The notes under the pieces were generated by a model that did not search any database, had not been told where the DNA came from, and worked only from the letters and a program-made list of their open reading frames with translations. A stretch of 64,000 bases of DNA. Origin: an uncultured Planctomycetia bacterium. GTDB lineage: Bacteria; Omnitrophota; Gorgyraeia; 1-14-0-20-64-10. Within the stretch, counting starts at the first letter, position 1. Each line of letters opens with the position of its first letter. Shown piece after piece: positions 20,770 through 50,178 of this stretch. Location of the stretch: assembly GCA_964372395.1 (NCBI GenBank), contig CAYJQV010000004.1, positions 2,984 to 66,983 on the forward strand, read 5' to 3'. The position numbers and the translations under genes are program-made.

Positions 20770-22289
20770 TACAGCTCCTGGAGTAGCTCGATGGGAAAGA
20801 TGTTCCCTGGGCTGAGGATCCCCCGGGGATCGAGCCCCTTCTTCACACGCGCCATCTCCTTCAGCCCCTCGCGTCCTACCATCATCTCCAGGTAGGGGAC
20901 GCGCAGCTTTCCGATCCCATGCTCGGCGGAGATCGTACCGCCCAGCTGAATTGCCTTGCGGGCGATCCGCTCGTAGAAGGCAAGGGCACGCTTGAACTCC
21001 TCCTGGGTCGCGGGAAGGAAGTTGGCGTGCAGATGGTTGTCCCCGAGGTGTCCCCAGAGGGTGGCAGCCATCTGCGACTTCGGCAGCTCCTCCAGAGTGA
21101 AGCGGAACATCTCCTCCGCTCCGGGGTCCGGGACCGCGCAGTCGGTCCCGACCTTCCGGAAACCGTTCCGGGCCACCTTCTCGTTGACGAGCACCGGCAG
21201 GTCGTACCGGAATTTCCGGAACTCGCGGTGGTCCTCCGGCCGATGGGAGAACCAGCAGTCGGATGCACTGGCCCCCGCCGACTCGGAGGCCCCCGTCCAT
21301 TCCTGGAGGAGCGCCTCCTGCTCCGATTTGCTGCACTCCTGCTCGAAGAGCAGGGCCGCCCCCGCGTGCTCCGGCGTGTCCGGATGCTTCTCTGAAAGGA
21401 GCCGCAGGGAACAGGAGTCGAAGAACTCCAGGGCACGGGGGGAAAGCCCCATTCCCTGCACCCGTGGGGTCAGACCCTCTGGGGTCTGACCCCAGAGGGT
21501 CTGACCCCATTCTGCCTGGCCCTTGGCCTTGGCTGCGAAGCGGAAACAGTCCAGCTCCGTATTGAAGAAGAGGATCCCGCTGAAGACCGACTCGGGCCTC
21601 GGCAGGACTTTCAGCTCGATCCGGGTCACCACCCCCAGCGTTCCCTCGGATCCCACAAAGAGATCCACAAGATCCATTCCATCCTCGGCGAAATAGCCGG
21701 CCGCGTTCTTGGGGCAGCGGGACCGGTAGGTGGGCACCGGCAGGTCCGCGGAGGCGCCAGCCGGGAAGGGAATCCGGAGGATTCCCTGGCGGGCGGTAAT
21801 CTCTCCGCGCCGGATCTCCAGAACCTCCCCGCTGGCCAGCACGACGCGCAGGGCTTGCACGTACGCGCGGGTCGGGCCGTACTTGAACGACCGTGAACCG
21901 GAGGCGTTGGTGGCCACGTTCCCCCCGAGCGAGGCCTTCCTCTCTCCGGGGTCCGGCGGATAGAAGAGCCCTCGCGGCTCCAGTGCGGCGTCCAGCTCGG
22001 AGAGGGTAACGCCCGGCTCAACGATGGCGATCCCTGCGGGAGAGGTCCTGTCCCACCGGACCTCCAGGATCCGGTTCATCTTCTCCGTGCAGAGGACCAC
22101 GCCCCCTTGAGGGACCCTCGCCCCGGTCAAGCCGGTTCCCGCGCCGGAGATCGTCACGGAAATTCCCTGCTTCTGGAAGGTGCCGAGGAGGGAGGCCACC
22201 TCACCTTCGGAGGTCGGCAGGAAGATCCGGTCCGCCTTCCCGCGAAAATGGGAGGCGTCCCGCAGATGGTCGTCCGCCGCCTGGTTCAC
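20769..22289 (-). CDS. FAD-linked oxidase (GlcD / D-lactate dehydrogenase family) carrying an in-frame repeat-derived insertion
   Basis: FAD-binding PCMH domain (...TISGAGTGLTGARVP...) and a C-terminal FAD-oxidase domain. A 15-aa WGQTLWGQTPEGLTP insert is encoded by the palindromic repeat at 21466-21508. Confidence 0.8.
   Translation of the reverse strand: MNQAADDHLRDASHFRGKADRIFLPTSEGEVASLLGTFQKQGISVTISGAGTGLTGARVPQGGVVLCTEKMNRILEVRWDRTSPAGIAIVEPGVTLSELDAALEPRGLFYPPDPGERKASLGGNVATNASGSRSFKYGPTRAYVQALRVVLASGEVLEIRRGEITARQGILRIPFPAGASADLPVPTYRSRCPKNAAGYFAEDGMDLVDLFVGSEGTLGVVTRIELKVLPRPESVFSGILFFNTELDCFRFAAKAKGQAEWGQTLWGQTPEGLTPRVQGMGLSPRALEFFDSCSLRLLSEKHPDTPEHAGAALLFEQECSKSEQEALLQEWTGASESAGASASDCWFSHRPEDHREFRKFRYDLPVLVNEKVARNGFRKVGTDCAVPDPGAEEMFRFTLEELPKSQMAATLWGHLGDNHLHANFLPATQEEFKRALAFYERIARKAIQLGGTISAEHGIGKLRVPYLEMMVGREGLKEMARVKKGLDPRGILSPGNIFPIELLQEL
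21466..21508. repeat. palindromic repeat element copy A (GGGGTCAGACCC-tct-GGGGTCTGACCCC-agag-GGTCTGACCCC)
   Basis: Perfect 12-bp inverted repeat plus a third arm. Lies inside a CDS and is in frame. Confidence 0.8.
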
Positions 22290-22311
22290 TCCGGCTTCGG
22301 AATCAGCTGCG

Positions 22312-22944
22312 CTAGCGGCCGCGTCGGGCGGTGACGACCGAGGATTTCATGAGGGCGTCGGCCGCCGGCGGCGAGAAGCCGACATAGCCGCGGTGTCTCT
22401 CGATGATCTCGACCACCGTGAAGGGGTGCCCGCGCTTGACGTCGGCGGCGGTGAAGACCTGCCTGAGATCGGTTCCCGGCGCCCCGACGATCGGCCCGGC
22501 GAAGCGGATCCCCTTCTTCTTCATGAGGATGACCGCCCGGTCAATCTCCTCGACCCGGACCGCGATGTGGTGGAGGACCCTGTCCGAAAAGCGCCGCACC
22601 CAGGGAGGGATGACGCTGGTGTTGCCGCGGGGCCCCTTGAAGGCCTGATCCATGAAAACGGCCGGCAGCCCGGGCTTTCGGTACACCTTGGCCCACCAGT
22701 CGTCGTACTCGAGGATGCCCTCCCTGCCGATCGTCCGGTCCCAACGGAACCCCAGCCGGAGGAACTCCTTCGCCCGCCGGTCCACATCCAGAGTCCGGAC
22801 CGTGATGTGGTCCACCAGGGGGAAGAGGCCGACCCCGATCCGATCCAGGTGCTCCCGGAGAATGCCGGAGGGGCGGGAGTTCCTCACGAACTCCTCCACA
22901 TAGCGCCGGACGACCCTTTCCGCGCGATCGCGAGGCGGCTTCAT
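22312..22944 (-). CDS. VOC (glyoxalase/dioxygenase-like) family protein
   Basis: Two glyoxalase-like beta-alpha-beta modules. Weak family assignment. Confidence 0.45.
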   Translation of the reverse strand: MKPPRDRAERVVRRYVEEFVRNSRPSGILREHLDRIGVGLFPLVDHITVRTLDVDRRAKEFLRLGFRWDRTIGREGILEYDDWWAKVYRKPGLPAVFMDQAFKGPRGNTSVIPPWVRRFSDRVLHHIAVRVEEIDRAVILMKKKGIRFAGPIVGAPGTDLRQVFTAADVKRGHPFTVVEIIERHRGYVGFSPPAADALMKSSVVTARRGR

Positions 22945-23038
22945 GGCAGCATTATAACCGATTCAGCCGGGCTGGCTGAAACGAACAGCCCCGGGATCTT
23001 TGAAGACCCCGGGGCCGTTGGGGATGAGACGCGGGCTC

Positions 23039-23404
23039 TTACGCGCCCCACATGCACATGGGGCAGTCGGAAGCGATCTGAGAGCCGTCCTTGGCCTTGG
23101 GCAAGGGAGCGGTGATGATTTCAGACGCACCCTTGACGGCGCGCAGGCAGGTGTGTCCGATCCCCTTCCCAACGCCGACCAGAACGTTCCCGCCAGCCCT
23201 GGCCTCCTTCACCGGCTGATTGACCAACTCCGTCCAGCACAGGCCGGTGTTGGCCGCCCCGCGGGTCAACTGCGAGCCGCTCTTCACCAGGTGGTTGTCG
23301 GAGGTTGTGTTCGTGCAGACCGGGCAGTCCCCCGCAGCCAGGGCGACGGCGGACAGCCCGAGCAGTACCGTCAACACCACAACTCCCTGCAAGAACCTTT
23401 TCAT
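23039..23404 (-). CDS. small secreted Cys-rich hypothetical protein
   Basis: MKRFLQGVVVLTVLLGLSAVALAA signal peptide. Six Cys residues. ATG at 23402-23404. The upstream ORF extension is ignored. Confidence 0.5.
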   Translation of the reverse strand: MKRFLQGVVVLTVLLGLSAVALAAGDCPVCTNTTSDNHLVKSGSQLTRGAANTGLCWTELVNQPVKEARAGGNVLVGVGKGIGHTCLRAVKGASEIITAPLPKAKDGSQIASDCPMCMWGA

Positions 23405-23639
23405 CCTGCCCTCCCCATGGGTTGTACCGGCCCAACGCACCGGTGTGAAATTGCCATAGGATACAATACGCCGGCCTTTCGCGCAAGCAATGCCGTCACC
23501 GCCTGGCATCGGTGGCTTTCCAGGCAAGGGGTCCCCATCCATGCGGCGGGTCGTTAATAGGCATTAAAATCTACTTAGATCATTGACGCTGGTGGATCGA
23601 TCAGCCATACTTTCTAATGAAACCACCGAGGAGCTAGAG

Positions 23640-24002
23640 ATGAAGGCAACTTTACCTGTCTTGATCACAGCGGCAAGCATAGCGTTTTTCTCGCCTGAGA
23701 ACGCCCAGGCGATAGAGCCGATACAGGGTCATGGAGCCGTCGAATCTGCCGTCAGCGATGGAGGGCCCCAGGCGATTCCTGAAGAGATGAAACCCCAAGC
23801 CGCCAGCCTTACATTGATCGTGGATCCAAAGAACCGGGAGCTGCCAAAGCCGCCTCCTCGCCCAATTCCAGATCCCGAGCCGGAGCCGCCACCGCCGCCT
23901 GTCCCTCCGAGCAGAATCGTGAATCCGGAAACCGGGGAGCCGGTCATAGACTCTCAGCCTGCCTTGCCCGATCTGAAAGATATTCCCGAGGGGATTGTGT
24001 AA
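23640..24002 (+). CDS. secreted Pro-rich hypothetical protein (lower GC than surroundings)
   Basis: GAGGAG RBS. MKATLPVLITAASIAFFSPENAQA signal peptide. PEPEPPPPPVPP tract. Local GC is ~55%. Confidence 0.5.
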   Translation: MKATLPVLITAASIAFFSPENAQAIEPIQGHGAVESAVSDGGPQAIPEEMKPQAASLTLIVDPKNRELPKPPPRPIPDPEPEPPPPPVPPSRIVNPETGEPVIDSQPALPDLKDIPEGIV

Positions 24003-24007
24003 GAAGG

Positions 24008-26116: not shown

Positions 26117-26131
26117 CCTTTCAAACTCCGG

Positions 26132-26410: not shown

Positions 26411-26425
26411 TCGGACAGCGCCCTC

Positions 26426-27013
26426 CTAGATGAGATACAGCAGTGGAAAGAGAAAGATCCAGACCAGATCCACGAAATGCCAGTACAGCCCGGAGATCTC
26501 GACGATGTGGCTGCGCGCCCTGAAGAAATCACTCCGGAAGGTCGACGCCAGGACCCAGAGATTGGCGATCACCCCGCCGAGCACATGAAGCCCATGGAAG
26601 CCGGTCAGGGTGAAGTAACAGTCCCAGAAGAGGCCTGTTCCGGGCAGATGGCCGTGGGCAAACTTCACCGAGTACTCGTACGCCTTGACCCCGAGGAAAG
26701 CGGCCCCCAGCAGGATCGTCAAGGCGAGGAAGAGCCGCAGCCGGGCCGCGTCCTGCTGATGAACCGCGGCGACACCCAGCGCCATCGTCATCGAGCTCGA
26801 GAGAAGGATGAAGGTGTTGAGGGCCGCCAGCGGGATCTGGAGCTCCTCGCCCGGCTGCGGCCAGTGGGGCAGCCCCGCGCGCAGCACGATGGAGGCCCCG
26901 ATGAGGCCGGTGAAGAACATGACCTCCGAGGCCAGGAAGAGCCACATCCCCAGCTTGGGCGAGGGGATCCCGGTGGAGGTCGCCTCCAATGCATGTGCCG
27001 CTGGCTGCGTCAT
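26426..27013 (-). CDS. ctaE: cytochrome c oxidase subunit III
   Basis: ...GMWLFLASEVMFF...HGLHVLGGV... His-rich TM helices. ATGA overlap with the upstream gene. Confidence 0.85.
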   Translation of the reverse strand: MTQPAAHALEATSTGIPSPKLGMWLFLASEVMFFTGLIGASIVLRAGLPHWPQPGEELQIPLAALNTFILLSSSMTMALGVAAVHQQDAARLRLFLALTILLGAAFLGVKAYEYSVKFAHGHLPGTGLFWDCYFTLTGFHGLHVLGGVIANLWVLASTFRSDFFRARSHIVEISGLYWHFVDLVWIFLFPLLYLI

Positions 27014-28792
27014 GAGATCACCCGATCCAGCGTCAGCGTGGTCAAAAGAACCGGCAGGTACACGACCGAGGCCAGGAAGAGCCGATGGGCGGTCTGTCCT
27101 GAGCGGGCCCGTGCCGTGGCAAGCCCCAGCCCCAGGAAGATGACCCCACCCGCCAGTGCCACCGAAAAGTAGAGCCATCCGGCGAAGCCCAGACCCACCG
27201 GGAGAAGACTGACCGGCAGAAGCGCGGCCAGGTACAGAACCACCTGCCGGAAGGTGAGGCCCCCTTCCGGATCGAGAACCGGCAGCATCCGGAAGCCGGC
27301 CTGCCGGTAGTCGGACCGGAACTGCCAGGCGAGCGCCAGGAAATGAGGGAGCTGCCAGAGGAAGAGGATGGAGAAGAGCCACCAGGCCGGCAGGCCCAGC
27401 ATCCCCCGCGCCGCTGCCCAGCCGATCATGGGTGGCAGGGCGCCCGGCACCGCCCCCAGCAGAGTGCAGAGCGCCGAGCGGCTCTTGAGCGGCGTGTAGA
27501 TGAAGAGGTAGGTGACCAGGGTCAGGGCAGCCAGCGCCGCGGCCAGCAAGTGAACCCCGAAGCTGAGCGTGGCCAGGCCGGCGATCGATAGGGTGACCCC
27601 CACAGCCAACCCTGCTTCCGGTGACACCCTGCCGGAGGGGATGGGGCGCGTGCGGGTGCGAGACATCCGGGAATCGGCCTGCCACTCCATCGCCTGATTG
27701 AGCGCGGCCGCTGCTGCGCCCACCAGCGTGGTTCCGATGAGTGTTGCGATGAACCGCCCCCAGGGGAACGGGCCCACTTGGCCCATGAGGAATCCGAGCA
27801 GAACCGTGAGGACCGACAGGATCGTCAACCGCGGCTTGGTGAGCTCCAGGAGGTCGGCAAGGCGCGCGCCACCGGACTGGCGGCGCGAGAGAGGCGCAGA
27901 GCCGGGCAGGGGGGCGAGAGCCGCGCGCAGGGAGTGGGTGGTGAGAACCGCTGAGGTGGCCAGGAGGAGAGCTCCCACGGCGACATGACCCGTGGCGGTG
28001 AACGGATTCGAGCCCTGGAGGAAGGTCAGGAGACCCAGGAGGATTTGCAGCGGAACGAGCAGAAGGAGAATCCGCGCCGGCCCGACGTATTCGGGCCGGT
28101 CGGAGTAGTCCCTGAGACAGACGAAGGCGGCGCGCAGGAGAACCGCCCCGGCCAGGATCGCTCCGGTTCCGTGCGCCGCCAAGAGCGGGGCGCTCCATCC
28201 GAGATGCCGCAGGGCCGCACCTAGCAGGAGCTGAAGGTAAACCAGCGCGGTCATCGAGAGGAACAACCCCCAAGGCACGCGTCGAGGGGTCAGACCCTCT
28301 GGGGTCAGACCCTGGAGGGTCTGACCCCAGAGGGTGTTCCAGCCGGGGCCGAGCACTGTGGCGAGGACTGCCAACAGCGCAAAGAAGGTCTGTCCCAGCG
28401 TTGCATGGGCGATGGAGATTGGCGCCGGCAGGAGGAGCAGCACCGTCAATCCCCCCAGGATCCCCTGCAGGACCACGGCGGCGAATGCCGCCAGCGCCAG
28501 CCGGCGAACCCAGCGGCGCTTCTCAGCGGCCAGGATGGCGAGGGTGAGCAGCAAGGTCAACAGCCCCACACCCGCGGCAACCAGGCGGTGGGTGTGCTCG
28601 TAACGGATGCCGCCCACCATCGGGGGGAACAGGGAGCCGTACGAAAGGGGCCAGTCCGGGACGGCGAGCCCGGAGCCGGTGGAGGTGACCAGCCCGCCTG
28701 CGATGATCAGAAGAAAGCCAGCCGCCGCGGTGAACCAGGCGAAAACCTGAAGGGGTCTGACCCCAAGAGGCTTTTCGGGGTCAGACCCCATG
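27010..28792 (-). CDS. fused haem A synthase (CtaA/COX15, N-terminal) / protohaem IX farnesyltransferase (CtaB/COX10, C-terminal); carries one internal and one N-terminal palindromic-repeat insertion
   Basis: N-terminus ...GGLVTSTGSGLAVPDWPLSYG... is CtaA. The C-terminal half has the UbiA-family motif NQAMEWQADSRMSRTRTRP, which is CtaB. The start is placed at the ATG inside the repeat (28790-28792), and the true start is uncertain. An in-frame LWGQTLQGLTPEGLTP insert is present. Confidence 0.75.
28286..28328. repeat. palindromic repeat element copy B (GGGGTCAGACCC x2 direct, then GGGTCTGACCCC)
   Basis: Inside the ctaA-ctaB CDS, in frame. Confidence 0.8.
28752..28789. repeat. palindromic repeat element copy C (GGGGTCTGACCCC-N12-GGGGTCAGACCCC) at the ctaD/ctaA junction
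   Basis: Contains the ctaD stop codon (TGA inside GGGGTCTGA on the minus strand) and a candidate ctaA start ATG. Confidence 0.75.
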
Positions 28793-30526
28793 GGGTTTCT
28801 CCGTCTGCAGCTGCCAGTCCCGTCTTGCCCCTGGCACGGAGTACTCGTATGGCCCGCAGTGGACGGTGGGTGTGGTGGCGAAGTTCCCGTGGGGCGGAGG
28901 AGAAGGGACGGTCCACTCCAGTGTCGTCGCCTCCCAGGGATTCTCATTCACCCTCTTGCCGCGGAAGAGAGATGAGAAGAAGTTATAGACGAAGAGAAGC
29001 TGCGACGCGAACAGGCAGAAGGCGGCCACACTCATCATCCGGTTCAACCCCACCAGATTCGCCAGGGCCGGATACTGCGTGTAGTCGTAGATCCGCCGCG
29101 GCATGCCGCCCAGGCCCAGGATGAACATCGGGAACATGACCGCATTGAAGAGCAGGAAGGAGAGCCAGAAATGGATCTTCCCCAGCCGCTCGTTCATTGC
29201 GCGGCCGAACATCTTGGGGAACCAGTAGATGATGCCGGCGAAGGCGCCGAAGAGGGAGCCGCCGAAGAGGACGTAGTGGATGTGCCCGACGACGAAGTAG
29301 GTGTCGTGCAGGTACATGTCCACCGGGGTGGAGCCGAGGAAGATGCCGGTGAGGCCCCCGATGATGAACATCGAGATGAAGCCCAGCGCGTGGAGCATCG
29401 GCGTGGTCAGCCGGATGGATCCGCGCCAGAGGGTGCCCAGCCAGCTGAACACCTTGACGCCGGTGGGGACCGCCACCGCCATGGTGGAGATCATGAAGGT
29501 GGTTCCCAGGACCGGATTCATCCCGGCGTGGAACATGTGGTGCGCCCAGACGAGGAAACCGACCGCCCCGATCCCCACGGAGGCGTAGGCGATCGCCCTG
29601 TAGCCGAAGAGCGGCTTCCGGGAGAAGTTGGGCAGGATGTCGGAGATAAAGCCCATCGCCGGCAGGATCATGATATAGACCGCCGGGTGGGAGTAGAACC
29701 AGAAGAGGTGCTGCCAGAGGACCGCCTGCCCGCCGGCGTAGGGAAGGGGATTGCCGTCAACGATCATCCCGGCCGGCAGGAAGAAGCTGGTCCCCAGCGT
29801 CCGATCCAGGAGCAGCAGGATGAGGGCTGAGGCGAGGACCGGCGTCGCCAGCAGGGTGAGCACCGCCGTCGTGAAGAGGGCCCAGATGGAGATCGGCAGA
29901 CGATGGAAGCTCATCCCCGGGGCGCGGTGATTGACGATGGTGGCGATGTAGTTCACCGACCCGAGGATGTTGGAGAACCCCAGCAGGATGAGCCCCGCCG
30001 TCCAGAAGGTCTGGCCCGCCCCCATCGTCTCCTTCGCCCCGGACAGCGGCGGGTAGGCGGTCCAGCCGGCGGCGGCGGCCCCCCCCTCCGCCCAGAACCC
30101 GAGCATGACGGTGATCGCCGCAGGCGGGAAGAGCCAGTAGGAGAGCATGTTGAGCCGCGGGAACGCCATGTCGGGCGCGCCCACTTTAAGCGGGATGAGG
30201 TAATTGCCGAAGGCGCCCGCCAGGAGCGGGATGATCCCGAAGAAGATCATCGCCGAGCCGTGCATGGTGAAGAGGACGTTGTAATACTCCGGCACCATGT
30301 AGCCGCCCGGCATCCCCTCCGGGGCGAACTTCTCCATGAAGGGCAGCGGTGTCCCCGGCCAGCCGAGCTGCCAGCGCATCAGCATGGCCAGCACGCCGCC
30401 GAAGAGCATGAAGAGCAGCGAGCTGAAGAGGAACTGGATGCCGATGATCTTATGGTCGGTCGAGAAGATGTACCTCCTCAGAAAGGGGACTGTCCCCCCC
30501 CGCCCCGGATGCGCTGCTTCACTCAT
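28781..30526 (-). CDS. ctaD: cytochrome c oxidase subunit I
   Basis: 581 aa with haem-copper oxidase His ligands throughout. The C-terminal ...KPHGV and the stop are encoded by the palindromic repeat. Confidence 0.9.
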   Translation of the reverse strand: MSEAAHPGRGGTVPFLRRYIFSTDHKIIGIQFLFSSLLFMLFGGVLAMLMRWQLGWPGTPLPFMEKFAPEGMPGGYMVPEYYNVLFTMHGSAMIFFGIIPLLAGAFGNYLIPLKVGAPDMAFPRLNMLSYWLFPPAAITVMLGFWAEGGAAAAGWTAYPPLSGAKETMGAGQTFWTAGLILLGFSNILGSVNYIATIVNHRAPGMSFHRLPISIWALFTTAVLTLLATPVLASALILLLLDRTLGTSFFLPAGMIVDGNPLPYAGGQAVLWQHLFWFYSHPAVYIMILPAMGFISDILPNFSRKPLFGYRAIAYASVGIGAVGFLVWAHHMFHAGMNPVLGTTFMISTMAVAVPTGVKVFSWLGTLWRGSIRLTTPMLHALGFISMFIIGGLTGIFLGSTPVDMYLHDTYFVVGHIHYVLFGGSLFGAFAGIIYWFPKMFGRAMNERLGKIHFWLSFLLFNAVMFPMFILGLGGMPRRIYDYTQYPALANLVGLNRMMSVAAFCLFASQLLFVYNFFSSLFRGKRVNENPWEATTLEWTVPSPPPHGNFATTPTVHCGPYEYSVPGARRDWQLQTEKPHGV

Positions 30527-31178: not shown

Positions 31179-31181
31179 GCG

Positions 31182-36586: not shown

Positions 36587-37384
36587 ATGCGCCGGATTTC
36601 CGTCCTCGCGATCTCAGCCCTTCTTTATTCTTCCCTTTTCCCGCGCCCGGTTTTCCCCCTGAACCTGGATCGTCTGGACGCCGAGGAGCTCCGCTTGAGG
36701 GAATCGATCATGAGGCGGCTCGTTCCGCTCGCCGACCGGCGCAGGCAAGAGGGAACCGCACCCCTCATCACCTTCGAGGAGCTGTACGCGGGCCTGAGCC
36801 AGCGGGAGATCGAGTTCCTCGAGCAGTTCCGCCGGGTGGACCCGGCGGAGGTGGGCGGCTCCAGCCGGCGGCTTCCGCCGCCAGCGGCCGACAGCGAATT
36901 CGTCCGGCTGGACCGGCAGGTGGTCCTGCGCGAGGGCAAGCCGATCCGGCTCGATGCACAGTATCTGCCGCGGACAGCGCACGAGGCGTACCGCCGGATG
37001 ATGGCGGCCATGGAGGAGGATCTCGGCAAGCGGCTGCTGGTCGAGTCCGGATACCGCTCCCCGGCCTATCAGCTCTACCTCTTCCTCTACTACATGCCAA
37101 AGCACGGCCACTCCGTCCGGGAGACCAACCGCCACGTCGCCCTGCCCGGGTGCAGCGAGCATGGGAGCCCCGATTTTCAGGCGATCGACTTCATCACCCC
37201 GGAGGGGGTGAACGGCGAGGATCGGCCGGAGGAGTTCGAGGAGCTGCAGGAGTACGGCTGGCTGCGGGCTCGCGCGCGGGAGTTCGGCTTTCGCCTGTCG
37301 TACCCTCGCGGCGGTCCCTCCGCATTCGAGCCATGGCACTGGCATTGGGAGAAAGGGAACTTTTCGGAAAGGGACTTTCCATGA
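36587..37384 (+). CDS. peptidase M15 family (VanY-like D-Ala-D-Ala / L,D-carboxypeptidase), secreted
   Basis: Signal peptide MRRISVLAISALLYSSLF. ...SGYRSPAYQ... and ...HGSPDFQAIDF... are Zn-ligand motifs. Confidence 0.7.
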   Translation: MRRISVLAISALLYSSLFPRPVFPLNLDRLDAEELRLRESIMRRLVPLADRRRQEGTAPLITFEELYAGLSQREIEFLEQFRRVDPAEVGGSSRRLPPPAADSEFVRLDRQVVLREGKPIRLDAQYLPRTAHEAYRRMMAAMEEDLGKRLLVESGYRSPAYQLYLFLYYMPKHGHSVRETNRHVALPGCSEHGSPDFQAIDFITPEGVNGEDRPEEFEELQEYGWLRARAREFGFRLSYPRGGPSAFEPWHWHWEKGNFSERDFP

Positions 37385-38943
37385 AGCCGGTGTCTCCCAA
37401 GGCGGAGCGCCCCAGCCTTTCCTGGAAGGGGCTGTACAAGGAGGCGGCGCTCTACCAAGCGGCGCTGAAGCTTTACACCAAGGCCCTCTTCCAGTGGAGG
37501 AAAGCCCTCTCCACCTCCTCCGATGGGAAGACGCTCTACGATTTTGCCCGGACGGGTCTGGAGCGCTTGGATTCGGTTCATGGAAGGCTCGAGTCTGCCA
37601 CGTTCCACTTCCGCGCGGGGACCGCCCGCACCCACAACTTCAACGGAAAGATCCGAACGCTGTACATCTATCCATGGGAGGAAAAGGTGGTGGATCTGCT
37701 GCTCTACCGGCTGATGAATGCGAAATTCCACGCCCTTTTTTCACCCTGCTCTTACGCCTACCGGTGGCGCGGGTACGGCGTAGACCTCTGCCAGAGGCGC
37801 CTCGCGTCCCAGATCGGACGGAAGGGCAAGCCCCTCTATCTCTTCAAGCGGGACATTGCCAGGTTCTTCGATTCCATCGACCATTCGATTTTGCTGGAGC
37901 GGCTCTCCGAATACGTCCCGCAGGAGGATTACCTCTGGCAGCTTCTCCGGCAGCGGGTGGAGTTTCCCTATGAAGCAGGCGGGCGGATCGTACGGGCGGC
38001 GCAGGGGGTTCCTTTCGGGACCCCGGTGGCCTGTTTCTTTGCGAACCTGTATCTGACGTGGCTGGACCGCCAGCTGGACCAGCGAAAGGGCCTGGCGTAC
38101 TTCCGCTATGCAGATGACCTGATCGGGATCGGATCCGATCCCGATGTGGTGCTGGCTGCGGCCGACTGCTGCGACCGGATGCTGGAGGAGCTGAAACTCT
38201 CCGTCAAGCCGAGCCAGTTTCTGCAGGGAGTTGTCTGCGCCACCCCGACGGAGCGCCCGCCCTTTGCCTGGATCACAAGGTTCAGGCACCTGGGACTGGA
38301 ATTTCGGTGCGATGGCCGCACAGGCCTTTCGAGGGACAAGAGGCGGAAGATCTGCAACCTTTTCCAGTATGCCTTCCGCCGCAAGGCAGGGCGGTTTCGC
38401 AAGATTTCCTCTCCGCAAAAGCGGGCCGAGCTGGCGGTGGAGATCGCCCGAAGGGTTCTGGACCAGCAGCTCCGGCACGTCAGCATCATCGACTACTACC
38501 TCAGGCACGTCCGGGATGAAGAGCAACTGCGGCAGATCGACCGGTGGCTGGCGGAGGAGGTTCTCTCCATCTCTCTGGGCGGGCACCGAAGGGGACATTT
38601 TCGTCGGATCTCCTTCCGGCGGTTGCGCGAGATGGGCCTGCCCTGCCTACGGCACCGCAGCCGCCTGATCCGCCACGGCCAGATCAAAACCTCCTTCTTC
38701 CGTTGGAAGGAGTATCAGCAACAGAAGGCAAAGCGAGGGGGATGGCGCCAGGCTGGAGGTCGGAAAAACCCCAGCCTTTTCCCCGTGCCTGGAAGCATCC
38801 GCCGCGAGCACCCCGTGGGAGAGGGAGGCGGACTGTCGACAGGCGGTATTGAAGACAGATTCGCTGAAGCGAATCTGTCGTTGTCCTGCCATCCCCCTTC
38901 GCTTCCATCCAAGAGAGAGGAGCCGACCGATGGGGCTTCTTGA
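37381..38943 (+). CDS. reverse transcriptase (RNA-directed DNA polymerase), retron / group-II-intron-like lineage, free-standing
   Basis: ATGA overlap with the M15 stop. RT motifs 1/2 (RTLYIYPWEEKVVDLLLYRLMN; SYAYRWRGYG), motif A (LFKRDIARFFDSIDHSILL), motif B (QGVPFGTPVACFFANLYL), motif C FRYADDLIGIG (YADD at 38107-38118), motifs 6/7 (LKLSVKPSQF...FRHLGLEF). No En/HNH or maturase-intron context. The C-terminal ~100 aa is low-complexity and may be non-coding. Confidence 0.85.
   Translation: MKPVSPKAERPSLSWKGLYKEAALYQAALKLYTKALFQWRKALSTSSDGKTLYDFARTGLERLDSVHGRLESATFHFRAGTARTHNFNGKIRTLYIYPWEEKVVDLLLYRLMNAKFHALFSPCSYAYRWRGYGVDLCQRRLASQIGRKGKPLYLFKRDIARFFDSIDHSILLERLSEYVPQEDYLWQLLRQRVEFPYEAGGRIVRAAQGVPFGTPVACFFANLYLTWLDRQLDQRKGLAYFRYADDLIGIGSDPDVVLAAADCCDRMLEELKLSVKPSQFLQGVVCATPTERPPFAWITRFRHLGLEFRCDGRTGLSRDKRRKICNLFQYAFRRKAGRFRKISSPQKRAELAVEIARRVLDQQLRHVSIIDYYLRHVRDEEQLRQIDRWLAEEVLSISLGGHRRGHFRRISFRRLREMGLPCLRHRSRLIRHGQIKTSFFRWKEYQQQKAKRGGWRQAGGRKNPSLFPVPGSIRREHPVGEGGGLSTGGIEDRFAEANLSLSCHPPSLPSKREEPTDGAS
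38854..38879 (+). ncRNA. perfect 11-bp stem / 4-nt loop hairpin (GACAGATTCGC-TGAA-GCGAATCTGTC), candidate structured RNA element at the RT / Zn-ribbon junction
   Basis: Seen directly. The lower-GC, non-coding-looking stretch 38700-38930 surrounds it. Confidence 0.35.
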
Positions 38944-42546: not shown

Positions 42547-42763
42547 AGCGCGTTGGATGACTGCGGCGGTGGTTTCGAGCGTCGCGGGGCTTGCCCTGAT
42601 CGGTTGCCAGAGGCAGCAGCCGGCGGGCAAGGGCAAGGAGCACGGCGGCAAGGAGCATGCGGGCGCGGCGCTGAAGGAGCACGGCGGCAAGGAGCACGGC
42701 GGGGCCGCGGTGGCCAAGGAGCACGGCGGCAAGGAGCACGGCGGGGCGACCGTCACGAATTAG
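42536..42763 (+). CDS. small lipoprotein with six KEHGG(A) repeats
   Basis: Lipobox LIGC. Repeats KEHGGKEHAG / KEHGGKEHGG x3. Confidence 0.55.
   Translation: MMRRARWMTAAVVSSVAGLALIGCQRQQPAGKGKEHGGKEHAGAALKEHGGKEHGGAAVAKEHGGKEHGGATVTN
42625..42750. repeat. tandem ~15-bp repeats (aaggagcacggcggc) encoding the KEHGG units
   Basis: Direct inspection of the sequence. Confidence 0.6.
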
Positions 42764-42778
42764 GAAGGAGGAATCAAG

Positions 42779-43189: not shown

Positions 43190-43334
43190 TCGGGCAAGTC
43201 CCCCAGGCATCGGCGGACAGCAGCCCCTGATTCTCCAGGTCTGCCTGACCGAGGCCGAGATCCATCGGGATTTCATCCTTGCCCTGAAGCGCCGGAGGCT
43301 CACGGAGCGGTTCTTCTACTGGTTCCCCGCCTCC

Positions 43335-44168: not shown

Positions 44169-44836
44169 AGGAGACCGCGCAGGCCTACGACCGGCTGGCG
44201 GCCGTTTACGACGAGCGGTGGCGGCACTATCTGGACGAGACCTTGGACTGGGTCTCGAGGCACGTGGAGGCCCGCTGGCCGCTCCGCCTGCTGGACGTCG
44301 GGTGCGGCACCGGCGAGCTCATCCGGCGGCTCAAGACCCACATGCGGGAGACGTTCTTCGTCGGGCTGGACCCTTCCGCCGGGATGCTGGGCCGGGCGGA
44401 TCTGAAGTTCCCGGAGGGGGAAGGCCGCACGGCGCTGGTGCAGGCTACCGCTGACAGGATCCCTTTGAAGGACGGCTCCTTCGACTGGGTCGCCTGCGTC
44501 AACAGCCTGCACTGCTTCGCAGAACCCGAGCGGGCGACCATGGAGATGGCGCGCGTCTTGAGGCCGGAAGGGAAGCTCCTTCTCATTGACTGGAGCGGGG
44601 AGTCGTGGCTGTGCCGGCTGCTGGACGCCTGGTGCCGCCGGTTCGATCCGGCCCATGTCCGGATGTACCGGCCGGACGAGGCGAAGGAGATGCTGGAGCG
44701 GGCCGGGCTTTCCCTGCTGGCGATTGAGAACTTCCGGGTGGGCGGGCCGGCCGGCCTTCGCCTGTGGGAGATGATGTCGCTGACGGCGGTCAAGCCGGCC
44801 TCCGGGCTGCCCGCGTCAAGCGGGTTGGCCGCGTGA
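44165..44836 (+). CDS. class I SAM-dependent methyltransferase (Methyltransf_11/25-like)
   Basis: GTGA overlap with the upstream stop. [11 protein letters not shown] motif I. Confidence 0.7.
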
Positions 44837-44840
44837 CCTG

Positions 44841-44880
44841 TTCCCCCGGAGGTCAGACCCCCAGGGGGACAGGTCCCTTA
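44841..44880. repeat. degenerate copy D of the palindromic repeat (GGTCAGACCCCC-AGGGGGACAGGTCCC)
   Basis: Intergenic. Partial match to the GGGGTCAGACCC family. Confidence 0.4.
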
Positions 44881-44970
44881 TTTGTGGTAGCATGGGCGCT
44901 GGCGGCGGCGTGGCTGGCCCTCTTCGTCGCGGGCGGGCCGGACGCAGAGGCGGCAGGGACCTCGCCCAGG

Positions 44971-47109: not shown

Positions 47110-49678
47110 GGACGCTCGGACCGTTCCGGCTTCCGGCGTCCATCTTCCCAGAATGTTCCGCTGGCAAGCGGAGGAGATCTTCTTTTTCCTGGACCCTGAA
47201 TCCCCCCACTGGATCGCCACCGATGCGCGGGCGGCCAGGATCATCGGCTGGCTGGAGGAGGGCTTGACCGGCGAGCCGCTCCTTCATCGCTACGCCCAGG
47301 CCGAGGGGCTTGCGGTGGAGAAGGCCTGGCTGCACCTGCACGACTTCACAGGGGCGCTGTTGCGCTGCGGGTTCGCTCAAACCCAACCGGCCCAGCCGAA
47401 GCCTTACCTCGGCCGGGCCGCTTACGCCGCTGCCGGCGCCTTGCGGGAGCTCTGGCTCCACACGAACAACATCTGCAACCTGAGCTGCACCCATTGCCTG
47501 GTGGACTCCGCCCCATGGGTGAAGGACTGGGGCCTTCCGACGCCGCAGATCCCCGAGCTGGTGGACGAGGCGGCGGCCCTCGGTGCGGACCGGTTCTATC
47601 TGACCGGCGGGGAGCCGTTCATGAGGAAGGATCTGGGCCGGATCCTCAGCCACATCACCGAGCGCCGGAAGGCGGAGGCGATCGTGCTCACCAACGCGAT
47701 GCTGCTCAAGGGAGAGCGCGGCGGGGAGCTGAAACGCCTGCCGAGGGAGCGTCTGCGGTTTCAGGTGAGTCTGGATGGGGCGACTCCTGCAACCAACGAC
47801 CGGATCCGGGGCGTCGGCTCCTTCGAGCGGACGCTGGAAGGCCTTCGCTGGCTCAACGCCCACGGCTTTGAAACCTCTCTGACCACCGTGGTGACCCGAG
47901 CCAACCTGCAGGAGCTGCCGGGGCTGGCCCGCCTCTGCCGGCAGGCGGGCGGCCGGGTGCAGCACCTCATGTGGGCTCATCGCCGGGGCCGGATCCTCTC
48001 CGGGACGGCAGCGGACGATTTCCCAACGGCGGAGGAGCTGGCCGCGGCGGTCCGCCGGGTCCGGCGCGTCGCGGAAGAGGAGGGTGTCGCGCTGGACAAC
48101 TGGGAGACGGTCAAGCAGCGGGTCAACGGCCCCCCCGGGGTCAAGTACGATCTGGGCAACGCCTGCTGGGATTCCCTCTGCATCTATTCCGACGGGACGG
48201 TGTACCCCTCCGCGGCGCTGGCCAATTTTCCGCCGCTCGCGCTGGGCTCCCTGCAAGGATCCGGCCGGGAACCGGGCCGCAAGCCCGACCGGCTCGCCGA
48301 GATCTGGCAGAATTCACCGGTCGCCCGGACGTTCCGCCGGATGAGCCTGGTGGACAAGCAAACCCTGGCGGAGGATCCTTTCCGGTTCCTCACCGGAGGG
48401 GGGGACATCGAGCACTCCTTCTGGTTCAACCTCAACGGCGAATCCCCCGCGGCTCCCATCGCCCCGGAGCGGCTCCGCCGGATCCTGGCGGGGCCGGATC
48501 CCTACCATCCGCTCTACGTCGCGCTCATGAAGGATGCGATGGCCGAGATCGCCCGCCGCCAGCGCGATTCGATCAACCGCCGCTCCGGCTACGATGTGCC
48601 GCGGATCCTCCATGCCATGGGGCAGGGGGCGATCCACTGCGCCACGGAGGATCTGGCGGTGACCGAGGAGGTGGATGTCCGGACGCTCCATTCCAACTGC
48701 GTCCTGGCATTCGACGTGGACAAGCCCCGGCGGCTGGTGCGCGAGTACTACGGAAAGGCCGCTTTAAAACCGGTGGCGGAGCTCTGCTGTCCGACGAAGT
48801 TCGATCCATCCCTCGTCGGGCACATCCCCCAGGAGGTGGTGGATCGGTTCTACGGCTGCGGCTCGCCGGTCACCCTGGCGGGGCTCCGGCCGGGCGAGAC
48901 GCTGGTCGACCTGGGCTCGGGCGCCGGGATTGACTGCTTCATCGCGGCCAAGCTCGCGGGGCCGACCGGCAAAGCGATCGGCATCGATATGACCGATGAG
49001 ATGCTCAAGGTGGCCAATGCGAATCGGCCTGTGGTCGCCGCCAACCTCGGCTACGACGTCGTCGAGTTCCGCAGCGGGTACCTCGAGCAGGTGCCGGTGG
49101 AATCCAAGTTTGCGGATGTGGTCACCTCCAACTGTGTGGTCAACCTCTCGCCGGACAAGCCGAAGGTCTTCGCCGAGATTTGGAGGATCCTGAAGGACAA
49201 CGGCCGGATGGTGGTGGCCGACATCGTCTCCGACCGGCCGGTGCCGGCCCGCCTGAAGGTCAATCCCCAGCTCTGGGGCGAGTGCACGGTGGGCGCCCTC
49301 ACCGAGGCGGAATTCCTGGCTGGGTTGGAGGAGGCCGGCTTCTACGGCCTGTCTGTCTTGAAGAAGAGCTACTGGAAGGCGATCGAGGGCTACGACTTTT
49401 ATTCGGTGACGGTGCTGGGGTTCAAGTTCGAGAAGACGTCCGGCTGCCGCTTCATCGGTCAGCGGGCGATCTACCTCGGCCCCTTCAAGTCGGCCATGGA
49501 CGAGGAAGGGCATCTCTTCCCCCGCAACGAGCCGGTGGAGGTCTGCACCGACACCGCCGCCAAGCTGGCCAAGCCCCCATACGCCGGCAGATTCATCGTC
49601 ATTGCGAGCCCCGGCCCTTCCGCCGTTGCGGGCCCCGAAGGGGCGAAGCAATCTGCGTGCGGCCCCGGCTGCTGCTAA
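47090..49678 (+). CDS. fusion protein: radical SAM / SPASM-like domain (ArsS-like) + arsenite S-adenosylmethionine methyltransferase (ArsM)
   Basis: CNLSCTHC (CxxxCxxC) radical SAM cluster. ...[14 protein letters not shown]... auxiliary-cluster-like Cys. C-terminal half has ...ELCCPTKF...[52 protein letters not shown]...SNCVVNL...WGECTVGA... with all ArsM catalytic cysteines. An alternative start ATG lies at 47153. Confidence 0.75.
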
Positions 49679-49709
49679 AAGACTCCTTTTGCAATCACAA
49701 AAACCGCTA

Positions 49710-49742
49710 GGCCGATTGAGAAATCGGCCATACTTTATGTTT
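49710..49742 (+). terminator. candidate intrinsic terminator / hairpin (GGCCGATT-gaga-AATCGGCC + T-rich tail)
   Basis: 8-bp perfect stem followed by atactttatgttt. Sits in the AT-rich gap after the rSAM-ArsM gene. Confidence 0.35.
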
Positions 49743-49767
49743 AGACGGAGCAGAAGGAGGGAAGAGC

Positions 49768-50106
49768 ATGGCACGCAACCGATCTTGGATGCTCGTTGTG
49801 ATCTTGACGGGGATGGTGGCACTCGCCTCGGCGGGGGTCTCCTCTGCGGAGGAGGCGACCGCCTGGAACAAGCTGCAGCGGGGCGCGGTCAACACGACCA
49901 CCGGATGGCTGGAGATGATGGTTCAGCCGGTCGAGGGAGCGAAGGCCGAGTCCCCCTTCATGGGGGTGGTCACCGGCTTTGGGAAGGGGATCCTGCTGGG
50001 ACTGCAGCGGACCGGCCTGGGACTGGCGGACAGCCTCTCCTTTCCGGTCGGGCCGTACGATCGGCCCGCCATGGAGCCGGAGACCCTCTTCGGCCCGGTC
50101 AAGTAA
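49768..50106 (+). CDS. exosortase system-associated protein, TIGR04073 family
   Basis: 112 aa, signal peptide. ...GAVNTTTGWLEMM... is the family core. Confidence 0.6.
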   Translation: MARNRSWMLVVILTGMVALASAGVSSAEEATAWNKLQRGAVNTTTGWLEMMVQPVEGAKAESPFMGVVTGFGKGILLGLQRTGLGLADSLSFPVGPYDRPAMEPETLFGPVK

Positions 50107-50139
50107 GCTTAGTCGGCGTATCCGTCGTTTCAGCGGCAC

Positions 50140-50178
50140 GGGGTCAGACCCTCAAGGGGTCTGACCCCGTTTTTTCGG
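50140..50178 (+). terminator. Rho-independent terminator formed by palindromic repeat copy E (GGGGTCAGACCC-tcaa-GGGGTCTGACCCC + GTTTTTTCGG)
   Basis: Perfect 12-bp stem, 4-nt loop and a U-run. Confidence 0.8.

Follow-up and report, generated by a model that had tools for sequence, protein, structure and literature searches.

Short REP/REPIN-like palindromic repeats lie within and between intact genes of an Omnitrophota-like bacterium

Four clusters of a short palindrome occur in the window (the whole 64-kb stretch of DNA analyzed here, from an uncultured Omnitrophota-like bacterium), and these copies probably represent a minimal type of REP/REPIN-like palindromic repeat whose family is restricted to one lineage. 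The element is best read as a REP/REPIN-like mobile palindrome that combines RPE-like in-frame behavior with MIRU-like behavior at gene junctions. The host genes are not broken by the copies, and a location in coding sequence is unusually frequent relative to known selfish palindromic repeats. Mobility is suggested by the presence/absence patterns of the copies.

The repeat unit is a 13-nt near-palindrome, GGGGTC-W-GACCCC (W = A/T), found in arrays of two or three. A search of both strands of the whole window for GGGGTCAGACCC with ≤1 mismatch gave 15 matches, relative to a chance level of 1.24 ± 1.14 (maximum 4) in 100 dinucleotide shuffles. The strand-symmetric core GGGTCWGACCC is present in exactly 10 copies, all confined to four clusters at 21465–21509 (exact cores at 21467, 21482, and 21497), 28286–28335 (28287, 28302, and 28317), 28743–28798 (28753 and 28778), and 50138–50170 (50141 and 50157). 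These correspond to copies 1, 2, 3, and 5, a density of ~1 cluster per 16 kb; isolated single cores are absent from the window. The initial annotation had listed five loci of one palindrome family, and four of these stand. The fifth (44841–44880) corresponds to a separate intergenic hairpin on the plus strand (44835..44878) with a different stem (GACCTGTTCCCCC/GGGGGACAGGTC) and a single 1-mismatch core, about the chance level per window, and was rejected as a family member. The proposed unit, an inverted repeat with a 12-bp stem, also required revision: the arrays repeat the 13-nt palindrome every 15 nt, and the stems exceed 12 bp, the perfect or near-perfect inverted-repeat arms measuring 22 nt in copy 1 (21465–21486/21488–21509), 20 nt in copy 2 (28294–28313/28316–28335), 22 nt at 86% in copy 3 (28743–28764/28777–28798), and 14 nt in copy 5 (50138–50151/50157–50170). 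Because the arms are themselves 13-nt near-palindromes, "inverted" and "direct" repeats differ solely at the central base. An element thus comprises two or three units at 15–25 nt spacing, with a total length of about 29–59 bp, and one subfamily has additional outer arms (AAAACC...GGTTTT). All four arrays are predicted to form RNA hairpins, with folding energies from −33 to −52 kcal/mol (z of −4.7 to −8.2).

Copies 1 and 2 lie in frame within coding sequences and add the peptides that had been described from the open reading frames. Copy 1 (21465..21509) has three units at 21466, 21481, and 21496 (period of 15 nt) and forms a perfect 45-nt palindrome (−51.7 kcal/mol, z = −8.2). It is located in a minus-strand gene (20769..22289) for a 506-aa FAD-linked oxidase that is GlcD/D-lactate dehydrogenase-like and contains FAD_binding_4 and FAD-oxidase_C domains. 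The gene is intact, and the encoded peptide, WGQTLWGQTPEGLTP (in context, ...GQAEWGQTLWGQTPEGLTPRVQ...), falls in the linker that joins the two domains; in an AlphaFold model, insert residues 259–278 between these domains are coil with pLDDT < 50. The native sequence that adjoins copy 1 encodes GLSP, which is similar to the GLTP of the element. Copy 2 (28286..28335), with units at 28286, 28301, and 28316, a 15-nt period confirmed by TRF, an AGAGGGT extension, and a fold of −43.5 kcal/mol, lies inside the minus-strand ctaAB gene (27010..28791), which encodes a fused haem A synthase/haem O synthase (CtaA-CtaB, 593 aa). Its peptide, LWGQTLQGLTPEGLTP (...NTLWGQTLQGLTPEGLTPRR...), is placed by alignment in a variable loop of the CtaA moiety, between conserved N- and C-terminal parts. 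The insertion sites in both proteins are indel-rich in alignments, and each protein has gained a loop of about 15–20 residues. No copy interrupts the reading frame, and apart from the added segments the host proteins are conserved and of full length.

Copy 3 (28743..28798, minus strand, −39.9 kcal/mol) is a junction element that reads GAAACCCCAT-GGGGTCTGACCCC-GAAAAGCCTCTT-GGGGTCAGACCCC-TTCAGGTTT in gene orientation. As had been proposed, it bridges two genes. The ctaD (COX1) gene (28781..30526, minus strand, 581 aa) has its last codons, PHGV*, within this copy, including the TGA stop (...KPHGV*), and the annotated ATG of ctaAB (MGSDPEKPLGVRPLQ...) lies 8 nt upstream of that stop. The resulting 11-nt overlap, ATGGGGTCTGA, is contained in copy 3, which also supplies the first ~13 codons of ctaAB as annotated. 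Since this annotated start abuts a hairpin of ~−40 kcal/mol, translation of ctaAB probably depends on ribosomes that finish ctaD. One unit of a further palindrome with the same architecture, GGGGACAGTCCCC, lies in the part of ctaD that encodes the N-terminus (30484..30496, minus strand). The window has this unit once, and a 90% identical relative has two tandem units with a 16-nt period; the number of units per array shifts by slippage.

Copy 5 (50138..50176, plus strand) is an intergenic two-unit hairpin with 16-nt spacing and a predicted fold of −33.4 kcal/mol (z = −6.3). Its 15-bp stem is followed by TTTTTT, a textbook arrangement that agrees with the earlier assignment and suggests that this copy works as an intrinsic terminator; it is also the second-listed terminator-like site (15-pair stem) in the 44–52 kb region. 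The hairpin lies 32 nt past the end of a small ORF (49768–50106) that resembles a secreted protein and ~15 nt ahead of the GTG (50192) that opens the next gene, the coding status of these neighbors being assessed by GC3 and Pfam. A T-run is present only in this intergenic copy and is absent from the copies within coding sequences. In agreement with the initial annotation, gene tables and Pfam revealed no transposase or RAYT in the 64-kb window. The window does contain a UG26-like, defense-type reverse transcriptase (37381–38943).

Comparison with orthologues indicates that the copies are recent insertions and not ancestral sequence, one of the points on which the initial annotation had staked its reading. 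The copy 1 site is empty in an FAD-oxidase orthologue of 81–84% identity, and an orthologue of 86–90% identity has an unrelated 2×42-bp insert at the same codon. CtaA-CtaB orthologues of 90% and 80% identity lack both the loop insert (copy 2) and the junction element (copy 3). In the 90% relative, the ctaD|ctaAB junction is a plain ATGA overlap, and no GGGTCWGACCC core is present in 9 kb. The empty sites hold no seed unit. The filled and empty states are not related by clean insertion: each site shows replacement or divergence of ~15–20 nt of the native sequence, and comparison of the two states revealed no evident target-site duplication.

The same element, with AAAACC…GGTTTT flanks in common, is present in three other Omnitrophota-like MAGs, where its positions differ by genome within one conserved cta-to-FAD-oxidase synteny block. 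In GCA_016196375.1, one copy occupies a gamma-CA-like|tgt junction, at which the upstream gene ends in ...KPHGV* and the downstream gene starts with MGSDP..., and further copies lie inside tgt, at the end of atpC, and in the CtaA loop; the last is an independent, two-unit insert in the same loop as copy 2. In GCA_964603095.1, copies with the same AAAACCTGAAG flank are found at the ctaAB|ctaE and glyoxalase|FAD-oxidase junctions, and in the JACPTX01 MAG a copy lies near the C-terminus of a coding sequence. Flanks of 10–12 nt (AAAACCTGAAG/CCCCATGGGGTTT) are common to non-homologous sites in three MAGs. The copy 3 module recurs with the same flanks at unrelated junctions in loci L101 and L232, a repeated role in which stop and start are supplied for unrelated gene pairs. 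No copy of the element is present at syntenic loci L231 and L233. Together, the empty orthologue sites, the non-homologous positions in other MAGs, and the recurring junction role support the earlier suggestion of a selfish RPE-, REP-, or MITE-like palindrome that enters genes without disrupting them and would be mobilized in trans. The sample, which is small and biased to loci syntenic with the window, consists of 11 clusters from five MAG assemblies: five in frame within coding sequences, five at gene ends or junctions (three of which supply a TGA stop), and one intergenic terminator. Ten of the 11 therefore overlap coding sequence. The period is 15 nt in four of the five CDS-internal arrays, and the spacing of the fifth (L104) is 23 nt with a change of frame; spacings of 16–25 nt are seen in the intergenic copy and in three of the five junction or gene-end arrays. 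A metagenome scan for the junction form returned only four loci, none of them at a gene junction. In other phyla, hairpins built on this core lie mostly outside genes, and control scans did not show the core to be abnormally frequent.

The comparisons show that copies have arisen at new positions in the genome recently in evolution, and we propose that they persist only where the host tolerates them. Tolerance may follow from coding properties: five of the six reading frames are open, and the peptides are rich in Gly, Pro, Ser, Asp, Thr, and Gln (GQTP, GLTP, GSDP, GVRP), a composition suited to surface loops. The 15-nt period equals five codons, and therefore all units of such an array would be read in one open frame. 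In the T-form, the remaining sixth frame includes a TGA, preceded at a distance of 8 nt by an ATG in the CCCCATGGGG flank; on landing at an operon junction, the element could therefore swap a native overlapping stop/start, ATGA, for ATGGGGTCTGA. By analogy with REPINs, the leading candidate for the mobilizer is a RAYT-like HUH/Y1 transposase with a single gene copy elsewhere, which would act on the hairpin in single-stranded DNA. Alternatively, copies may spread between sites through recombination or template switching.

An unlikely alternative is that the copies are host-selected, cis-acting RNA or DNA structures whose spread reflects selection for function, such as termination, stabilization or processing of operon mRNA, translational coupling in cta, or binding of a dimeric protein at the 13-bp palindrome, in place of selfish mobility. 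Copy 5 is a convincing terminator, the ATG and TGA of the junction copies are placed so that both genes remain translatable, and co-option of REPs to such functions is documented (PMC3337134). Copies are also present in the cta operon of each of three genomes, though at different positions, and this enrichment is an ascertainment effect because those loci were the ones fetched. However, closely related genomes (80–90% protein identity) have none of these copies, the positions vary between genomes and are not conserved, and the enzyme-coding copies have no T-runs and no obvious regulatory logic. Co-option of individual copies is compatible with a mobile REP/REPIN-like family, and would fit alongside it without replacing it. 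Somewhat less probable still is an origin in situ, by local slippage or hairpin-templated duplication of a pre-existing GC-rich palindrome with no movement between sites. The ctaD palindrome that is single in the window and tandem in the 90% relative, the variation from two to three units, the other tandem duplication at the copy 1 site of the closest FAD-oxidase relative, and the native GLSP beside copy 1 are all consistent with such a process. In contrast, four unrelated loci in one window hold ten copies of an identical 11-nt core where ~1 is expected, too many for each to be an independent local invention, and neither the shared flanks at non-homologous sites nor the lack of a seed unit at empty sites agrees with local origin. 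Slippage accounts for the number of units, not for the family.

DNA uptake sequences of Neisseria and Pasteurellaceae (DUS/USS) are frequently arranged as inverted pairs with terminator function, and permissive coding frames tolerate them. A comparable word favored by a competence system would explain short inverted pairs that form a terminator once and lie in permissive coding frames several times. This explanation is very improbable: the motif occurs throughout in arrays of two or three and never as single units, its density is far below the ~1 per kb of uptake words, and it is missing from the 81–90% relatives and patchy in related MAGs, whereas uptake words are family-wide. Nor were competence genes noted among those of the window. 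A MAG contig with perfect palindromes, on which assemblers are known to stumble, could also contain palindromic junk or chimeric joins from metagenome assembly or binning. Such an artifact is the least credible explanation, given the intact frames through all copies in full-length, conserved proteins, the identical 593-aa CtaAB with both element-derived parts in three independent Logan assemblies (runs ERR4904390-92), and the same element in MAGs of other projects.

REP/REPIN elements are doublets of repetitive extragenic palindromes (REPs) that form hairpins and are mobilized by RAYT Y1 transposases. Their GGGG...CCCC palindromic cores form doublets in two configurations set by an asymmetric center, with variable spacing and flanking A/T runs (PMC3337134), and the P. 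fluorescens GI core is GGGGGCTTGCCCCC (PMC3337134; PMC3116915). The element described here shares the short, GC-rich core of GGGG...CCCC type, an asymmetric center (A-T versus T-A here, resembling TT-AA versus AA-TT in REPINs), hairpin-folding doublets, variable spacers, flanking A/T runs, an occasional terminator role, the lack of coding capacity of its own, and restriction of families to lineages (PMC3337134; PMC3116915). It differs in unit length (13 nt versus about 20–25), element length (29–59 bp versus about 90), the occurrence of triplet arrays (period 15 nt), and the lack of a RAYT within the 64-kb window. In addition, REPs are, as their name states, overwhelmingly extragenic, whereas coding sequence is overlapped by 10 of the 11 clusters here, a habit that does not support membership in the REPIN/RAYT family itself.

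Chunjie and other operon MITEs, Correia, ERIC, and the terminator-like SPRITE are likewise small, non-autonomous repeats; they can occupy operons or genes that stay functional and may supply terminators (PMC10969869). MITEs are usually 100–400 bp with IS-derived terminal inverted repeats and target-site duplications; at the sites compared here, no IS-type terminal inverted repeats, target-site duplication, or parent IS was found. Rickettsia palindromic elements (RPEs) are palindromes that lie in frame in unrelated housekeeping genes and add a peptide at tolerated sites while the protein stays active (PMC10969869). The in-frame palindromic insertion and the lack of a linked transposase (here within the window) are common to both (PMC10969869). 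In contrast, RPEs are about 100–150 bp, form defined Rickettsia-only families, and encode a conserved peptide of 30–50 residues, whereas the present elements are 3–5 times shorter, reside in a free-living, high-GC, Omnitrophota-like host, and also occur at gene junctions and as a terminator; their size and unrelated sequence do not support membership in the RPE family. Finally, mycobacterial interspersed repetitive units (MIRUs) are mobile short repeats at operon gene junctions that carry a small ORF coupled to the downstream gene through a stop/start overlap, so that insertion hardly affects expression (PMC12548453). Copy 3 and its L101 and L232 counterparts resemble them in that the TGA of the element terminates the upstream gene, with the start of the downstream gene at this TGA or beside it. 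Unlike these palindromes, MIRUs consist of direct tandem units (46–101 bp), are limited to mycobacteria, and carry a separate mini-ORF, whereas the elements described here extend the flanking genes.

Searching both strands of the window with GGGGTCAGACCC at up to one mismatch returned 15 matches, against 1.24 ± 1.14 in shuffled sequence. The exact core GGGTCWGACCC is present 10 times in the 64 kb, where about one occurrence is expected, and is confined to four clusters. Every arm of these hairpins is by itself a 13-nt near-palindromic unit, GGGGTC-W-GACCCC, and orientation is therefore set solely by the central A or T. Copy 1 (21465-21509) comprises three units at 15-nt spacing and forms a perfect 45-nt palindrome, and copy 2 (28286-28335) also carries three units at 15-nt spacing. 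Copy 3 (28743-28798) has two units spaced by 25 nt and extended imperfect outer arms (AAACC.../...GGTTT), and copy 5 (50138-50170) has two units spaced by 16 nt. All clusters of the family are doublets or triplets, both A-T and T-A doublet configurations are found among them, and element length ranges from 29 to 59 bp. RNA folding gave −51.7, −43.5, −39.9 and −33.4 kcal/mol for copies 1, 2, 3 and 5, with z-scores from −8.2 to −4.7. The initial annotation had listed five loci, and the repeat is borne out at four of them. The remaining locus (44841-44880), described there as a degenerate member, contains one core with a single mismatch, which is about the level of chance, and folds through an unrelated stem; it was rejected as a member of the family.

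The unit is compatible with translation in most registers. The A-form is translated as GVRP, GSDP or GQTP and the T-form as GSDP, GLTP or GV followed by a stop, such that five of the six frames are open and code for small, polar, turn-forming residues. A 15-nt period places all units of an array in one frame. The closed frame of the T-form, combined with the ATG of the CCCCATGGGG flank, creates an ATG-N8-TGA arrangement that, judging from its sequence, can substitute for a lost ATGA overlap.

The window has a GC content of ~66 %, and its proteins have their closest named relatives in 'Candidatus Omnitrophica/Omnitrophota' MAGs. The region of interest is a minus-strand cytochrome c oxidase operon (c-type cytochrome, COX2, ctaD, fused ctaA-ctaB, ctaE, COX4 and SCO1), after which come MTHFR, a glyoxalase-like gene and a FAD-linked oxidase on the same strand. 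As first described, two copies are in frame within coding sequences: copy 1 in the 506-aa FAD-linked oxidase (20769-22289; ...GQAEWGQTLWGQTPEGLTPRVQ...) and copy 2 in the CtaA part of the CtaA-CtaB fusion (ctaAB, 27010-28791; ...NTLWGQTLQGLTPEGLTPRR...). The junction of ctaD (28781-30526) and ctaAB likewise agrees with the earlier description, in that copy 3 holds both the ctaD stop and the annotated ctaAB start. This copy supplies the end codons and TGA of ctaD (...EKPHGV*), and the annotated ATG of ctaAB (MGSDPEKPLGVRPLQ...) lies 8 nt upstream of that TGA, giving an 11-nt overlap (ATGGGGTCTGA). Copy 5 is intergenic, located 32 nt past the stop of a small ORF (49768-50106) with coding-type GC3 (0.87). 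A 15-bp stem with a 3-nt loop is followed here by TTTTTT, and the next gene starts ~15 nt on. This GC-rich stem-loop with a T-run downstream of a gene is a predicted intrinsic (Rho-independent) terminator of the textbook kind that had been proposed for one locus. The T-run is found in copy 5 only, and copies 1-3 are not terminator-like. At 20446-21510 (minus strand) and similar places, the repeats also give rise to long ORFs in other frames that are spurious (one of them starts with MGSDPLGSDPRGSDP...), and they lengthen annotated termini (...KPHGV* in ctaD, MGSDP... in ctaAB), a source of mis-annotation in such MAGs.

To distinguish insertions from ancestral sequence, the host genes were compared with their orthologues, a check named in the initial annotation. 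Among 14 aligned FAD oxidases, the insert is present in the window's protein only; in an orthologue of 81-84 % identity (P0002), ...AKG continues directly to PGTGLSPRALEFF. The closest relative (P0003, 86-90 % identical) carries an unrelated insert at the very codon of copy 1, consisting of two tandem 42-bp GC-rich copies of GCGCAGCGGCTGGCGCTGGCGGAAGCGCCACCACGCGCCCCG that code for AQRLALAEAPPRAP twice (L002, ~340-450; JGI 3300045502 contig Ga0494960_00654091). The inter-domain linker of the FAD oxidase is an insertion hot spot, and in the AlphaFold model residues 259-278, which hold the insert, are predicted to be an unstructured, low-confidence coil lying between helix 245-255 and strand 286-290. 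The CtaA-CtaB proteins that are 90 % (P0122) and 80 % (P0123) identical have neither the loop insert nor the N-terminal MGSDPEKPLGVRPLQ extension. In the 90 % relative, the ctaD/ctaAB junction is a four-base overlap (...GAG CGA TGA / ATG AGA CTC...), and in the window a 56-nt element takes the place of ~17-22 nt; the core GGGTCWGACCC is absent from the 9-kb contig of this relative. An identical 593-aa CtaAB was recovered three times, in Logan assemblies of the separate runs ERR4904390, -91 and -92, which indicates that the inserts are real sequence. Apart from the insert, both the FAD oxidase and CtaA-CtaB are conserved and of full length, as is the case for RPE-type in-frame insertions that leave the gene intact. 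By these alignments, the window copies are insertions and not ancestral sequence.

A genome scan and follow-up sequences placed the same family on four further Omnitrophota-like contigs. In GCA_016196375.1, the element AGAAACCCCAT-GGGGTCTGACCCC-GTG-GGGTCAGACCCC-GTCAGGTTT lies at the junction of a hexapeptide/gamma-carbonic-anhydrase-like gene ending ...QKPHGV* and a tgt gene beginning MGSDPVGSDPVRFELL... (locus L101). Two-unit arrays of this assembly are also located within the reading frame of tgt (...LTGSDPAGSDPKRPLL...), in the CtaA loop that holds copy 2 in the window (RWGQTPRGLTPP) and at the extreme end of atpC, into an ATGA overlap. In GCA_964603095.1 (L232), TTAAAACCTGAAG-GGGGTCAGACCCC-...-GGGGTCTGACCCC directly follows the GTGA overlap of ctaAB and ctaE, and the N-terminus of COX3 is derived from the element (...SLKPEGVRPLFAEGGLTPEATSTG...). 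In the glyoxalase gene of this same locus, the TGA of an array is the stop (...KGSDPFFRKGV*), 6 nt ahead of the FAD-oxidase start. An in-frame array ~30 codons before the CDS end was found in a JACPTX01 MAG (L104), and there are no copies in the syntenic 21-kb loci of two further relatives (L231 and L233). Within this conserved gene block, the element is thus placed differently in every genome, or is absent. Flanks of 10-12 nt are common to non-homologous sites, although the orthologous proteins of those genomes are only ~56-60 % identical. The differing placement and shared flanks point to a dispersing repeat family under sequence constraint and not to local invention. Together with the empty orthologous sites, they lend support to the proposed reading of a selfish palindrome that genes tolerate. 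At three junctions (ctaD and ctaAB in the window, the gamma-carbonic-anhydrase-like gene and tgt, and glyoxalase and FAD oxidase in L232), the TGA of a unit is the upstream stop, and the annotated downstream start is in or adjoins the element.

In total, 11 clusters were found in five Omnitrophota-like MAG assemblies: five are CDS-internal, five lie at gene ends or junctions, three of which supply the TGA of the upstream gene, and one is the intergenic terminator. A coding sequence is overlapped by 10 of the 11. The 15-nt, or five-codon, period is observed in four of the five internal arrays, the exception being L104 with a 23-nt spacing and a change of frame. Two non-internal arrays (L101 and L123, both in GCA_016196375.1) have this period, and the other four have 16 or 25 nt. 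For comparison with other phyla, an automated test scored a hairpin as CDS-internal if a coding-like ORF crossed it with at least 40 codons on either side. By this test, 10 of 136 same-core hairpins from other phyla are internal, as opposed to 5 of 11 in the Omnitrophota group, a count that includes junction copy 3, which is not truly internal, and misses the curated internal L104. The difference is significant by the Fisher test both for strictly internal copies (p = 0.0018) and when junction copies are counted (p = 2e-9), which indicates that the intragenic habit is a property of the Omnitrophota-like family and not of the motif.

The core itself is widespread. It is paired at no fewer than 118 loci from many phyla, including Bacillus, Lachnospiraceae and low-GC Patescibacteria (34-38 % GC with Bacillus), and same-core families are expanded in Oxalobacteraceae, Gaiellaceae/Thermoleophilia, Hyphomicrobium, Alcaligenaceae and a Halomonas. 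The Halomonas sp. contig NZ_CANLFS010000002.1 contains 14 cores in 8 kb, two low-GC JGI metagenome contigs (L224 and L225) carry long arrays of same-core hairpins, and the giant-virus MAG IMGVR GVMAG-S-404869-41 has six same-core stretches. These Halomonas, metagenome and giant-virus expansions are independent families whose cores are alike by convergence. In a scan of viral contigs, the motif pair occurred in 26 stretches and three palindrome controls of the same composition in 0, 53 and 20, and the core is therefore not exceptional. A very large database will yield such a spread for any GC-rich hairpin arm that is palindromic. A universal function of the 13-mer was rejected, since these controls are comparable and any perfect hairpin with this 11-mer as its arm fits the pattern. 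The Tn3 terminal repeat begins GGGGTCTGAC...; a resemblance to it was considered alongside the universal-core idea and rejected on the control scans. When 2,393 ORFs from the 118 core-bearing loci were clustered all against all, no protein family proved to be recurrently linked to the hairpins. A metagenome scan for the junction cassette CCCCATGGGGTCTGACCCC...GGGGTCAGACCCC returned four loci, two intergenic and two in long arrays, with none at a gene junction, a result that is uninformative on the Omnitrophota lineage. A word-indexed search with the encoded peptides matched no host protein, and an exhaustive search of 50 % representatives returned only three unrelated repeat proteins. An exact lookup of the ctaD product gave no record, no Rfam family matched in the window, and searches of the available literature gave only unrelated primers and viral sequences for the exact 11- and 12-mers and no paper on palindromic repeats in Omnitrophota. 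We conclude that the core common to these phyla is a matter of coincidence or convergence, and that the copies of the window belong to one family with the Omnitrophota-like copies alone, which also have flanks and habit in common.

As to how the element moves, gene tables and Pfam scans revealed no DDE, serine, tyrosine or HUH/Y1 transposase in the window, and no RAYT (HUH/Y1, PF01797) is encoded within it. The initial annotation, which proposed mobilization in trans, was correct as to transposases; this picture has to be qualified by a 520-aa reverse transcriptase (RVT_1; 37381-38943, plus strand), the sole mobile-element-like gene in the window. Its best match in PADLOC is to the UG26 class of defence-associated reverse transcriptases (E = 4.5e-36), and a GC3 below that of the neighbouring genes suggests recent acquisition. 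Neither a target-site duplication nor IS-like termini are seen when filled and empty sites are aligned; a short native stretch is replaced. Single-strand transposition of the IS200/IS605-RAYT type leaves no duplication, and a hairpin-directed process of this kind would be compatible with the absent duplication. Templated copying would be equally compatible with the pattern of filled and empty sites. Unit number is altered by slippage, as indicated by another, similarly built palindrome, GGGGACAGTCCCC, which is single in the N-terminal coding region of ctaD in the window (30484-30496, minus strand) and tandemly duplicated in the 90 % relative (L122, 4281-4309), with a 16-nt period and five additional codons (...GRGQSPSGTVPF... 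versus ...GRGGTVPF...). The GGGGTCWGACCCC family is absent from the 9 kb of this relative.

Other repeats and insertions are seen in the window. The HIP1-like palindrome GGCGATCGCC occurs four times (2312, 16413, 29588 and 61094) against 0.53 expected, a count reached in 0 of 100 shuffles, and may be another over-represented palindromic word of the genome. At 42622-42747 (plus strand), between a transglutaminase-like gene and the next ORF, a 42-nt unit with an internal period of 15 nt is repeated in tandem ~2.8 times and encodes a repeat of the KEHGG type. The acetyl-CoA synthetase gene (15844-19050, plus strand; ~1,032-1,068 aa) has its two AMP-binding halves separated by an intein with Intein_splicing and LAGLIDADG homing-endonuclease domains; in three relatives, the syntenic genes encode 643-648 aa without an intein.

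At the ctaD/ctaAB junction, the annotated ATG directly abuts the 5′ side of a hairpin of about −40 kcal/mol, and for this reason coupling of ctaAB to ctaD is proposed: de novo initiation at ctaAB would be hindered, and its translation would rely on ribosomes that had unwound the hairpin while terminating ctaD. A tentative and rather doubtful extension is that the family is a selfish palindrome adapted to the coding DNA of gene-dense genomes, as opposed to REP-like hairpins that landed there by chance. This idea is based on the unit being open in five of six frames, the five-codon period, the loop-friendly peptides and the ATG-N8-TGA cassette with its A/T-rich outer arms. Such a cassette would replace the overlapping stop and start of an operon and hold the downstream gene in a translational coupling enforced by the hairpin. 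If true, Omnitrophota would possess a portable gene-junction module that is RPE-like and MIRU-like in one minimal element of less than 60 bp. Short palindromic repeats are usually held extragenic, and in-frame colonization of genes (RPEs) and coupled junction insertion (MIRUs) are each known mainly from one specialized lineage. Here, in-frame and junction behaviours and a predicted use as terminator are found with elements shorter than 60 bp in a high-GC phylum that is uncultured and free-living, which suggests that selfish repeats compatible with genes occur more widely than the classic cases would imply. For annotation, the repeats create lineage-specific indels in conserved enzymes and shift annotated starts and stops, and they can fragment MAG assemblies. 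If a hairpin of about −40 kcal/mol by the start allows the junction copies to enforce coupling, they would be a compact natural device for the study and engineering of termination-reinitiation.

Of the known systems, REP/REPIN sequences are the closest in architecture. They have a palindromic core of the GGGG...CCCC type whose asymmetric centre gives two doublet configurations, doublets that form hairpins and differ in spacer length, flanking A/T runs and an occasional terminator (PMC3337134); all of these features are shared by the present family, with the terminator a predicted one. As in the REPIN hairpin of two inverted REPs, all clusters are doublets or triplets (−33 to −52 kcal/mol). A REP is a short imperfect palindrome with many copies across a genome; in the 64 kb of the window, the 13-nt near-palindrome is clearly repeated, with 10 cores against ~1 expected. 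In contrast to the predominantly extragenic location of REPs, 10 of the 11 clusters overlap a CDS. The parent-IS terminal inverted repeats and target-site duplication of a MITE are absent from the alignments of filled and empty sites. RPEs insert in frame into genes of Rickettsia (PMC10969869), and the in-frame behaviour is alike, but size, sequence and host differ: RPE families 1-10 of Rickettsia are ~100-150 bp long, whereas these elements are 29-59 bp in an Omnitrophota-like host, and no sequence relation to RPEs was found. For MIRUs, insertion takes place at start codons and leaves a coupled overlap (PMC12548453), and a comparable operon-junction repeat overlapping stop and start is observed at three junctions, with starts taken as annotated. 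MIRUs are, however, specific to Mycobacterium and consist of direct, non-palindromic tandem units of 46-101 bp, in contrast to the palindromic arrays of 13-nt units in another phylum described here. By analogy, the family would behave as a REPIN that is tolerated in the manner of RPEs and MIRUs, and it is filed under none of the three.
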